Virus record (IMG/VR): IMGVR_UViG_2872198387_000006
From: a virus
Taxonomy: Duplodnaviria > Heunggongvirae > Uroviricota > Caudoviricetes
Reading direction: 5' to 3' (one strand)
Length of the DNA: 54,166 bases
A program made the translations under genes and the position numbers. This document shows, piece by piece, positions 48,326 to 51,592 of the stretch (positions are counted from its first letter, which is position 1; each line of letters starts with the position of its first letter). The notes beneath the pieces are model-generated. The model did not search any database. It was not told where the DNA came from and worked only from the letters and a program-made list of their open reading frames with translations.

Positions 48326-48386
48326 TATTAGCTCCTTCTGATGCCATTCTATTTCAGGAAGGAGTGTCCGTTAAACTCAGGCTATC

Positions 48387-50021
48387 TCAATAAACCGTGC
48401 TGTGTAACTGCTGTGGATCAAATCTGACCACAACTTTTTTCACTCCGGCATTCATTAATGCCATGTTGTAATAAACGTTTTTCGCGCCTTTAAGGGAGCC
48501 GCCAACTTTAAGCGTAAACTCGCCTTTGCGTGAAACGTTCACCGCCTCGGCAGGCAGTAACAGCATCCGTTTTTGTTCTTCGGTTGGCTTACGCACAATC
48601 GTTCTGGCGTATTCACGCTCGAAAACATCATCAAACGAGAGTTTGCCCCCGCACATTTCTGTTTCACGGCCTGTTCTGGCATTGAACATCGCCACACCTT
48701 CGGCAAAGGTTTTCAGAAACAGCTCTGCATCAACAGCGTGGTCGCCATAGTTATCAGGTTTTGCCTGCGGATTTGGCCCCGTATATGCGCCAGCCAGTGC
48801 CGGATGCTTATCAACGTATTCCTCAAGCCCACCAACACCGAAAGCACGTTCAACAGGTTTTGCCTGGCCCCAGCCTTTACCGGCAACAACGCTTGTCCAG
48901 TGCATTTTCGCACCCATCAGTAAAAACAGTCCTTTTGGATCGTCCTCTTTTACCTTAAAGCGGTAGCGATTGGGCGCGCCTCCCGTCAGCCATTTATTCG
49001 CAGCACCACGGGTGTTATCAATGGTGATGTGAAAATCCTCCGGGATACTGTAGCGAGTCACAACATCCATGAACGAGAGGCGAATTGAATCAATGTTCTC
49101 GCTCACATCGCAGCGCCAGCCCAGAATTTTTCGGGTTTTCACATCCTGCCAGAACCATGTTTTCGGACGGATCACATCACCGTTAAACCAGCGTACAAAG
49201 ACGTTATGCAGATAACCGTCGCCGTTGATCCACTGCATGGCGTCCAGGTGTTCCACAGTTCGCTGCTGTGCCGGTATCAGATGCATCAGTGCATGTTCAC
49301 CTTCACGACAGGCAACAACCATTGCCTCGTCCAGTTGCTGAATCCGGCGAAAGGCCGTGGCACGGGAGGGAATACTCCAGCCATGCTCGCGGGCTGCCAG
49401 TTCCAGACGCTCATAACATTTGCGGAAGGCGGGTTTTTCCGGTCGCAGATAATCTGCAATCAGAAACTGCCAGGCATCCTCGTCAAATTCACTTTTGTGA
49501 ACATTGCGACGGGATGCTCCACGTCCATCAACAAGTGCAGCCGCCCAGTCAGGCTTCGCAAACTTCTGTACCTGGTAATACTTGTCCCGCAAAGTGGATG
49601 CGCTGACCTGGTAATGCCCTGCAACGGTCGCAAAAGCCGTTTTCGTTGAAATCCCCTGGTTCAGCATTTCGTCTGTGGCCTGAATTGAGGGCAACCATTT
49701 TTCAGCCAGGCTGCGCTGGGAATCGCTGGCTTTATCCCATTTGCTCCATAGTGCCTCACGATCATAATCATGAGCTTCCAGCGTGGGGCGGGCGATTTCA
49801 AAACATCCCTGACTGGTTTTAAATTTTCCTTGTTGGAGCAAAACTTCAGCTCGAGCAATGTTAGGAAGAGAAGATATATGGTATTCGTAAGCAACCCCTC
49901 TAATTCCTTCTCTTCTTCTCTTGAGCCATCCTTCTCTCTGAGCTCTTTTGTGAACCCCCATTAATGAACCAGGTAAACCAGATAAACCCATGCATTCAAT
50001 TGCTGATATCCACTCTCTCAT
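48387..50021 (-). pseudogene. A: Mu-type DDE transposase A, C-terminally truncated (544 of ~663 aa)
   Basis: From about residue 75 onward it matches remembered Mu A almost residue for residue; stops ...[13 protein letters not shown], 8 bp from the IS600 terminus. Confidence 0.85.
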
Positions 50022-50250
50022 TGTGATCCCTTAGATATCTACTAGGCCAAATTTCCTCAGGTTTCATGTTTAAGGCGTCAGCAATAATGCGTTCACCTTT
50101 AGGCCATGGCCTGACTAATGCATTTGCAAGCGTCCCGGTTGAATAACCTGAACGTCTGGACAATTTTGCCAGAGGGGTTCCTGTTTTTTTGAGGGCCGCA
50201 ATCACGTCGGCCCGATGCCAATCGTTACTCATCTTTCGCACACCAACCAT
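49996..50250 (-). CDS. ner: Ner-like DNA-binding regulator
   Basis: Contains ...[14 protein letters not shown]...TLANAL...WPKGE..IA.AL...PE.IWPSRY (Ner signature); start may be the internal Met at 50232. Confidence 0.8.
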
Positions 50251-50403
50251 ATTGCGTATGATAAAGGGTTACCAAAACAAATAATTCGTCTTGATTATCT
50301 GTTTTATACATTACCAAATAAACAAAACCGGTTTATATCAGTTAATGTGGTTTATTTTGTAATCCATTGATTTTTATATAGATAAATCTGGTAAACTTAG
50401 TTT

Positions 50404-50913
50404 ATGAAAAGCGCAAATGAGATAAACCAGTGGATGACACCCAAACAAATTACTGAACTGGATGGAATGCCTGGGACAATACAGGGGGTGCATAAACGAG
50501 CAAAGAAAGAAGGATGGCCGAAGCGTTCACAAGAAGGGCGTCGCGGGCCTGGGGTTGAATATATCCCGGCAATACCGGCTATGCAAAAAATTGCTATCGA
50601 AGAAATGAATGCTGATACATTGAAAATGTTCTCCCTGTTAATCAATAAACTAGGAGAAAATGAAGTCCGAGAGATAGAGCTAAACATGGCTAAATATGGG
50701 CTTTCCGGATTAATGCAAGAACGCCCCTCCATCTCCGTTGACACCCTATTGGCAACGCTGGGTATTGATCGCCAAACACTACAAACAGCTTTGGCGCTGC
50801 ATAAATTACCTCCAGAAACTCGCCAAGAGATTTTGTCAATGTATGGTGTTCATAAACAGGAAGAGCCTGTAGCTCCTTTGTTGGAACCACAAGATGCGAA
50901 AAAAGCCGTATAA
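50404..50913 (+). CDS. c: Mu-type repressor c
   Basis: 169 aa; N-terminus MKS...DGMPG...GVH.RA...GW.KR and C-terminus ...LPPETRQEILSMYGVHKQEEPV... resemble Mu c. Confidence 0.8.
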   Translation: MKSANEINQWMTPKQITELDGMPGTIQGVHKRAKKEGWPKRSQEGRRGPGVEYIPAIPAMQKIAIEEMNADTLKMFSLLINKLGENEVREIELNMAKYGLSGLMQERPSISVDTLLATLGIDRQTLQTALALHKLPPETRQEILSMYGVHKQEEPVAPLLEPQDAKKAV

Positions 50914-51039
50914 CAACCATGAGCCAGCTAAAACATACTTCACCTCACATAATCACACATGTAACATACCTAAACGGCATGAGCTGATTTGTGATATGAG
51001 TCATTTGGTGACAGCCTGGTTGTTATCGGTTTTGAACGT

Positions 51040-51250
51040 TTTTTGAAGCTATGATTGAAATGATTTATAGTGTTTTTGTTTTTCGTTTTTTCAATGAAAC
51101 AAAAGCAATTTTTTACTATCTTTCGCGTTTCATTGGTTAACGCCTAAAATTTGTACTACAGGCTTGCAAGCCCCACCAAATCTAATCCCATCAGATCCCG
51201 AATAATCCAATGTTCTCCCGGTTTTTTCGTACTTCAAGTGAATCAATACA
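51040..51250 (-). other. attL: Mu attL terminal region carrying the transposase end-binding sites
   Basis: Reverse complement reads TGTATTGATTCACTTGAAGTACGAAAAAACCGGG...CAATGAAACGCGAAAGATAGTAAAAAATTGCTTTTGTTTCATTGAAAAAACG, matching the remembered Mu left end. Confidence 0.8.
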
Positions 51251-51592
51251 CTGGGGCAAACGCTAACCCGTTTCCGCCAGCGTAAACATATGCTGGAAAG
51301 TATTGATAGCGCCAGCCAGAAGCAAATTGATGAGATGTTTAATGCCTATGCTCGCGGTGAACCCAAAGACGAACTGCCGACCGGCATTGACCCCTTGACG
51401 CTAAACGCGGTGCGAAAACTGTTTAAAGAGCCTGGTGTGCAACATACGGCAGAAACGGTGGCGCAGGCACTGACCATCAGCCGCACCACTGCCAGGAGTT
51501 ATCTTGAATATTGCGCCAGCCGCCATCTGATTATTGCTGAAATTGTTCACGGCAAAGTTGGCAGACCACAACGCATATACCACAGTGGGTGA
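51251..51592 (+). pseudogene. dpiA: dpiA (citB) response regulator, 3' fragment; gene interrupted by the Mu-like insertion
   Basis: Reading frame is open from the Mu end (…LGQTLTRFRQRKHMLESIDSASQ…) to ...GRPQRIYHSG; dcuC follows as in E. coli. Confidence 0.7.

Follow-up and report, generated by a model that had tools for sequence, protein, structure and literature searches.

The left end of a Mu-like prophage with a rare immunity module, inserted in dpiA of Shigella flexneri and bounded by IS600

The DNA studied here, hereafter the window, is the whole 54,166-nucleotide (nt) IMG/VR virus record IMGVR_UViG_2872198387_000006, in which all positions are numbered, and the Mu reference is AF083977 / NC_000929. 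The left 2.86 kb of a transposable prophage of the Mu type occupy window 48390-51250, and the locus is the remnant of an incomplete member of Muvirus. Altogether, our results make it highly probable that this remnant is an inactive piece from the left end of a Mu-like transposable prophage whose immunity type is rare, and that this prophage inserted in the host gene dpiA, underwent an IS600-associated deletion, and was then rearranged by IS600 recombination.

Left terminus, truncated transposase, and IS600 joint

BLAST of the whole Mu genome against the window returned only two real Mu segments, Mu nt 1-447 corresponding to window 51250-50805 (91.7% identity) and Mu nt 1511-2964 corresponding to window 49841-48388 (97.8% identity), besides a weak match to ner and, near 2.9 kb, a similarity to tail-fibre assembly that is unrelated. 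The element ends at 51250, where its terminus reads 5'-TGTATTGATTCAC... / 5'-TGTATTGATTCACTTGAAGTACG (minus strand). The left end (attL, 50914-51250, minus strand, from the Mu alignment, with 51250 as terminal base) has the 5'-TG... terminus and the three MuA binding sites of a Muvirus left end, all on the minus strand: the cores of L1 (51235-51224) and L2 (51131-51120) are exact, and L3 (about 51091-51080) has one mismatch. A first-pass annotation of this DNA had recognized 51040-51250 as the Mu left terminus, and the Mu alignment and the three sites bear this out. It had also read c, ner, and A inward of the terminus at Mu-like spacing, and indeed c (plus strand), ner (minus strand), and A (minus strand) have the order, orientation, and spacing of Mu, with the divergent c and ner and the A-like c N terminus that are typical of Muvirus. 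The same BLAST search found no further Mu DNA in the window, and no B, late genes, or right end contiguous with the left end, in agreement with the reported absence of B, lysis, and structural genes of Mu. The element does not, as had been proposed, begin at 48380, a position that falls 10 base pairs (bp) inside IS600, which ends at 48389.

Compared with Mu, the remnant thus has the same terminal sequence, L1-L3 sites, and gene layout, as well as near-identical A residues ~75-544 (about 98% DNA identity) and a conserved stretch of the last ~110 nt of c (...KKAV C terminus). It differs from Mu by another module for the 5' two-thirds of c, the operators, ner, and A residues 1-~61, by an overlap of ner with A of 26 nt, by an A that ends at codon 544, and by having neither B nor a right end nearby.

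The truncated transposase gene, A' (48387-50021, minus strand), retains codons 1-544 of 663 and encodes 544 amino acids (aa), with its stop codon inside IS600. Its product is 91-96% identical to the A proteins of Mu, D108, SfMu, and a prophage of E. coli UMNF18, with the differences concentrated in residues 1-~75; from residue ~75 it is near-identical to A of Mu, D108, and SfMu, and the near-identity with Mu A noted by the first-pass annotation is confirmed by both the protein comparison and the 97.8% DNA match. Pfam domains HTH_Tnp_Mu_1, HTH_Tnp_Mu_2, DDE_2, and a truncated Mu-transpos_C occur in the order of Mu, and the DDE triad is retained (D268, D335, and E391). The C-terminal 119 residues (545-663) are missing, and with them the remainder of domain II-beta and the whole of domain III. 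In MuA, domain III-alpha serves tetramer (transpososome) assembly and cleavage, and domain III-beta makes the contacts with MuB and ClpX. With a single end, without B, and with an A protein that lacks residues 545-663, the fragment cannot transpose.

The substitutions private to A' also suggest relaxed constraint or decay: 8 are non-synonymous and 4 synonymous, compared with totals of 5 and 30 for the four phage lineages Mu, D108, SfMu, and UMNF18 (p=0.0012, Fisher test). The three private changes outside codons 83-116 are all non-synonymous, and the A' of L025, one of the IMG/VR contigs described below, carries a frameshift.

The reading frame of A at the junction is ...ACG GTT TAT / TGA GAT AGC C, the slash marking the start of IS600. 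The stop at residue 544 was therefore rightly called, and its placement 8 bp from IS600 was not, since TGA (48387-48389) is made up of the first three IS600 bases: the left inverted repeat (IRL) end of the insertion sequence (IS) provides the stop of A'. Mu homology reaches 48388 because the next codon of Mu, TGC, shares TG with the IS600 end.

This IS600 copy (47126-48389, minus strand, 1264 bp, with orfA at 48023-48325, orfB at 47169-47987, and TG...CA ends) matches features annotated as "IS3-like element IS600 family transposase" over 1264/1264 bases at 99.6%. Its limits were set by three lines of evidence, namely the other copies in the window, the break in Mu A homology, and the break relative to the intact STY1053 gene of E. 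coli COL60J. On its other side lies the 5' part of a STY1053-family gene (46927-47125, plus strand), cut by IS600 8 codons before its end and belonging to an unrelated prophage whose terminase, portal, Mu_F, DUF2213, cement, and DUF2184 capsid genes stand to the left. IS600 shows no 3-bp target duplication (the outer flanks are AAT and ATA). Because this duplication is lacking and a different truncated prophage gene lies on each side, we regard IS600 as a recombination joint. The element had been described as cut off by IS600; A is indeed truncated there, but the IS600 copy is a joint, and the rest of the element survives in S. flexneri. The IRL of this copy (48385) reads GGCTATCTCA versus GGCTACCTCA in L025, L026, and L030, a lineage-specific change.

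The window holds several IS600 copies, and up to 43 places per E. coli genome match IS600, repeats of a kind that often cause misjoining, so an assembly chimera had to be considered. We give it next to no probability and reject it. The exact 544-aa A' occurs in 945 blocks of the assembly collection, the longest contigs examined all have the order capsid, STY1053', IS600, A', ner, c, dpiA', and dcuC, and the same arrangement is found in the finished chromosomes CP001383 (2002017), CP000266 (5b 8401), LM651928 (NCTC1), CP012137, and CP020342. One of these loci, L006, matches the window at 100% over the whole of 47100-51300. The junction, which the first-pass annotation had left to be checked for a chimera, is genuine, with exact A' and gene order recurring in independently finished S. 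flexneri chromosomes.

The immunity block

Between the two Mu-homologous segments lies a divergent block (49842-50804) comprising the 5' two-thirds of c, the operators, ner, and A codons 1-~61. The repressor gene c (50404-50913, plus strand) is intact, is transcribed towards the left end, and encodes 169 aa with Pfam domain HTH_Tnp_Mu_1. The longest open reading frame (ORF) of ner (49996-50250, minus strand) has 84 codons and belongs to Pfam HTH_35, the Ner fold (E=5e-29); its likely start is at 50232 (MSNDW..., 78 aa), and it overlaps the start of A by 26 nt. The c-ner intergenic region (50251-50403) contains GGTTTAT-type repeats and presumably the operators and divergent promoters; a scan of 49950-51300 for sigma-70 promoters and terminators gave nothing above shuffled background.

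The c protein is 85% identical to that of the UMNF18 prophage, 41% to that of Mu (35% by tblastn), and 28-30% to those of D108 and SfMu, and Ner is 99%, 59%, and 53% identical to these, respectively. Neither protein is near-identical to its counterpart in the Mu or the D108 immunity group, where near-identity of c and ner defines membership. The DNA of the block was found in only 1/5426 complete E. coli genomes, at 89.5%, and its type is absent from 50,697 phage records, the best c match there being 36%. Relatives at the protein level are few; apart from the cluster in S. flexneri, they are a handful of proteins from prophages of Salmonella and E. coli (85-92%). These comparisons indicate that the immunity block is a third type, distinct from those of Mu and D108, and the DNA-binding specificity of c is predicted to differ from both.

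In Mu and D108, the repressor and the transposase share an N-terminal domain that binds the operator and the enhancer. The motif which the first-pass annotation had seen in both c and A holds up as 40% identity over 60 aa (E=2e-17) between c and the A N terminus, and c of the window scores 133 against its own A N terminus, 130 against that of UMNF18, 102 against Mu, and 86 against D108, in agreement with this scheme. The N termini of c and A are paralogous and co-vary.

The divergence of the A N-terminal domain, c, and ner had been called the D108 pattern. The architecture does follow it: as in D108 and SfMu, the immunity block has been swapped in a mosaic with its right edge inside A. In all comparisons of Mu, with D108, SfMu, the window, and UMNF18, this edge is placed at Mu nt ~1508-1519, and the c and A N termini co-vary as in D108. 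The sequences do not, because c (29%) and ner (53%) are less like D108 than like Mu (41% and 59%), and the left-end DNA is 92% identical to Mu versus about 79% to D108. That the element is literally a remnant of a D108-type prophage is therefore extremely improbable, and we reject this identity. SfMu, a live phage of S. flexneri, has c and ner 89% and 98% identical to those of D108 (PMC4406740), compared with 28-30% and 53% for the remnant, which should not, from these sequences, confer immunity to SfMu.

The closest relative is instead the prophage in yphC of E. coli UMNF18 (NZ_AGTD01000001, ~3,086,972-3,118,000), which has the same immunity type, with 85% identity in c (the N-terminal domain being nearly identical), 99% in ner, 96% in A, and 89.5% in the DNA of the block. 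Unlike the remnant, the UMNF18 prophage is two-ended, measures ~31 kb, and has A, B, and late genes. Its operator region differs at several sites and keeps a 9-bp unit that has been lost here.

Insertion in dpiA and fate of the right end

The first-pass annotation had the element interrupting host dpiA and leaving a 3' fragment. This proved exact to the base: homology to dpiA of E. coli IAI1 starts at 51251, directly after the Mu terminus, which is codon 114 of 226. The 3' fragment (51251-51592, plus strand) covers codons 114-226 and encodes the helix-turn-helix output domain only (Pfam HTH_64), the receiver domain being absent here. Its first five bases, CTGGG (51251-51255, plus strand), are one copy of the 5-bp Mu target duplication. 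The other copy and the right end, which had been expected elsewhere in the genome, were located by an exact-pattern scan in which the predicted right junction TATGAACGGCTGGG + TGAAGCGGCGCACG matched exactly in three IMG/VR contigs (L024, L025, and L026); these read dpiA ...TATGAACGG CTGGG followed by the Mu right terminus TGAAGCGGCGCACG, with the same CTGGG (positions 4001-4005 of the IAI1 locus L014) next to the right end in all three. This confirms a true Mu transposition with 5-bp duplication between dpiA codons 113 and 114. CTGGG fits the Mu target preference N-Y-(G/C)-R-N. For finished genomes, TATGAACGGCTGGGTGAAGCGGCGCACG could serve as a sequence tag of the locus formed by dpiB, the 5' part of dpiA, and the Mu right end.

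Two of these contigs, L025 and L026, whose strain type is represented by IMG genomes 2529293240 and 2526164649, hold a whole mini-element of ~8.3 kb including IS600 in one piece, with CTGGG on both sides. Its order is dpiA-3', left end, c, ner, A' (to Mu 2964), IS600, G segment, gin, com, mom, right end, CTGGG, dpiA-5', and dpiB; the G segment is fixed in the flipped orientation (Mu 34785-31964), gin has an internal deletion, com is present, and mom is intact (241 aa). At IS600, the mini-element has lost ~32 kb of internal Mu DNA (Mu nt ~2965-34785). The third contig, L024, reads dpiB, dpiA5', right end, mom, G segment, and IS600. An IS1 lies in the Mu left end of L026; in L024, an IS1 sits within the G segment, and the stretch beside IS600 is 262 bp shorter.

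An exact look-up of the 127-aa fusion protein DpiA(1-113)::Mu-R found it under S. flexneri names on 699 contigs, the longest of 4.83 Mb, and it is from this record that we conclude that the right-end half exists in S. flexneri outside this window. The dpiA-5' fragment or fusion forms no separate protein cluster and lies inside the full-length DpiA cluster. A 117-aa DpiA fragment (P0024) was considered as the junction product and rejected, as it comes from an unrelated E. coli allele with a 1-bp deletion. That allele was seen in L021 (E. coli, Logan SRR12820645), where TATGAACGG has become TATAACGG, 8 nt upstream of the Mu site, and its 117-aa product represents a protein cluster of 93 member sequences. 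On the window side, a 100-aa ORF in dpiA-3' (ATG at 51290), considered for read-through from c, has no Shine-Dalgarno sequence. With dpiA split in this way, DpiB-DpiA signalling should be lost. The neighbouring dcuC (51633-53120) is intact here, and among the genomes compared (L006, L007, and L052) it is in some S. flexneri split into two or three ORFs or lost.

We propose a model in three steps. First, the phage transposed between dpiA codons 113 and 114, duplicating CTGGG, an event whose two junctions were both observed. Second, an IS600-associated event removed ~32 kb and left the 8.3-kb mini-element, as seen in two contigs. Third, an exchange with another IS600, located in a prophage of the ybhB (att-lambda) region, would have split the element, after which only the part from the left end to A' would have stayed beside dpiA-3' and dcuC; here the joint itself was observed, and the path leading to it is our reconstruction. 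The DNA immediately upstream of ybhB in S. flexneri genomes carries bioA, bioBFCD, and uvrB. The dpiA'-dcuC-pagP segment matches IAI1 on the plus strand, whereas the ybhB flank runs opposite to IAI1, with ybhC on the plus strand in L020 (oriented as the window) and on the minus strand in IAI1, where the two host flanks are ~150 kb apart. Because one host flank is turned around with respect to the other, the intervening 47 kb of prophage and IS patchwork must include at least one inversion joint, and the IS600 at 47126-48389 is one. Genome 2529293240, in which the contiguous mini-element (L025) occurs together with an IS600 at the exact same STY1053 site (L029), fits the state expected before the exchange between the two IS600 copies. 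Moreover, L025 and L026 keep ancestral operator states in common with the UMNF18 outgroup, including the 9-bp unit, which fits their being the older state. IS-mediated inversions and deletions have been documented in S. flexneri by comparison of Sf8401 with Sf301 (PMC1550401), and the present case resembles such rearrangements in that an IS600 without duplication joins unrelated DNA and the host flanks are inverted. A joint through an IS600 already inside a mini-Mu is not mentioned in PMC1550401 or PMC4406740.

A simpler course would be truncation, in which IS600 entered A and a deletion then took everything beyond it, namely the remaining Mu DNA along with dpiA-5', dpiB, and the cit genes, so that nothing of the element survives elsewhere in this genome. 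The window has no other Mu DNA in its 54 kb, and the reciprocal joint was not found in the finished genomes searched, as this course would predict. It is nevertheless improbable, given that 699 S. flexneri contigs, one of them a 4.83-Mb chromosome, encode the DpiA(1-113)::Mu-R fusion, that L024 has the arrangement dpiB, dpiA5', right end, mom, G segment, and IS600, and that a Mu mor-lys PCR (polymerase chain reaction) product and common Southern bands were reported in many S. flexneri strains (PMC4406740). In addition, a deletion cannot place the host flanks in opposite orientation relative to E. coli.

Several observations weigh against the sequence of insertion, deletion, and recombination that we favor. 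The reciprocal joint (G segment, IS600, other prophage) was not found in a finished genome with the window arrangement, and for this reason the inversion path rests on gene orientation and draft contigs. Pattern scans for parts of this joint gave no match for the IS600 right inverted repeat (IRR) beside the 3' part of A, which fits deletion of that part, and none for IS600-IRL beside the 3' end of STY1053; the L024-type joint matched L024 itself only, IS600-IRL beside tfa matched paralogous ipaH islands only, and look-ups of IS600 OrfB and of c for the reciprocal joint returned other IS600 sites or the window arrangement only. L025 and L026 cross a multicopy repeat and could in principle be repeat-traversal chimeras. 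The IS600/IS629 cluster at 24.5-28.0 kb may be another joint, so that more than one rearrangement may separate ybhB from dpiA-3'. Of the 12 private changes in A', 9 cluster at codons 83-116, beside the mosaic boundary, and may reflect that boundary instead of decay. Finally, the expression of c and ner and their binding are predictions made from ORFs and repeats.

Elsewhere in the window, two more IS600 pieces in inverted orientation occupy 24563-25647 and 26958-28012, the latter with a 25-bp internal deletion, and between them is an insert with the end TGAACCGCCCCGGGAATCCTGG... that is presumably IS629. This cluster (24563-28012) separates the terminase end of one prophage from the early region of a different one and is a second likely rearrangement joint. 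The terminase gene (39332-41894) of the prophage to the left of the IS600 joint, which is intact in E. coli COL60J, is split by an IS3-family element with ORFs of 121/136 aa and 301 aa at ~40097-41370. The window starts in ybhB (1-477), followed by an ipaH-type effector gene (1060-2823; 587 aa with LRR_TTSS and NEL E3 ligase domains). Within the att-lambda region, this ipaH island occupies the side of ybhB and is followed by lambda-like tail genes on the minus strand.

The c-ner control region and the meaning of the remnant

In an alignment of 12 sequences, the c-ner intergenic region has 9 variable positions and a 9-bp indel in 153 bp, about 20 times the variability of the flanks. Elsewhere, A' has 5 variable positions (1632 bp), ner has none (229 bp), and c has a single, synonymous one (510 bp), so that the flanking genes have from none to three per kb. 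Within the operator region, the variation is densest at 50312-50344. Among ten near-identical S. flexneri chromosomes, 3/4 single-nucleotide polymorphisms of the Mu part are at 50316, 50324, and 50331, the last being homoplasic. The 9-bp unit, of the GTTTATATG type, is lost in all genomes of the window type and kept in L025, L026, and UMNF18. GGTTTAT/ATAAACC motifs are enriched in the operator region, which holds 3/10 of those in the whole window. Both c and ner are intact in every locus examined.

In the window, c, ner, and their control region are intact and may still be expressed. In that case, c would repress its own early promoter as well as an incoming phage of the same immunity type, acting via the N-terminal domain that it has in common with A. 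One hypothesis, compatible with the structural account given above, is that the c-operator-ner module has been kept by selection as a working immunity or regulatory cassette, i.e., a domesticated repressor, which would protect against Mu-like phages of the same type or silence early-promoter transcription through A' into IS600. The intact c and ner at all loci, the exact c protein in 6687 blocks of the assembly collection, and the contrast over the 12 sequences between one synonymous change in c and none in ner and 5 changes plus a frameshift in A' speak for it, and the stepwise intergenic changes, the homoplasic site, and the loss of one GTTTAT-type unit are as expected if regulation is being tuned. 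We nonetheless consider it unlikely. Lineages this closely related are expected to show 0-1 changes in 510 bp even without selection, and given so little divergence, the intactness of c and ner does not prove selection. Pressure from matching phages should be weak for so rare an immunity type (1/5426 E. coli genomes and no sequenced phage searched), and the Mu-like phage known from S. flexneri, SfMu, belongs to the D108 immunity type. Being rich in AT and in repeats, the variable stretch could be a mere slippage hot spot, and the activity of the cassette is a sequence-based prediction.

The fuller claim, that a dead prophage expresses a living, selected third immunity specificity of the Mu family whose operators are under recurrent selection, is more doubtful still. 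If it were true, selection could tune the repression of read-through into IS600 or exclude matching phages.

Our study thus identifies the remnant of a Muvirus with a new immunity specificity, within ordinary, IS-driven Shigella genome decay, which is in itself unsurprising and notable only for the rare repressor module. It accounts for one S. flexneri pseudogene, dpiA, which encodes the response regulator of the DpiB-DpiA (CitA-CitB) citrate system. This system has also been linked to the beta-lactam-induced SOS response in E. coli. Mu "remnants" were detected in many S. flexneri strains by Southern blotting and mor-lys PCR in the SfMu study, in which c-ner PCR failed (PMC4406740), and a resident c-ner region of heteroimmune type may explain why these primers failed. 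The series running from Mu insertion through IS600 deletion and IS600 recombination to stepwise operator changes offers a clean and datable lineage marker for S. flexneri. Beside those of Mu and D108, this third immunity specificity could help to compare how the N-terminal domains of repressor and transposase co-evolve with the operator and enhancer.

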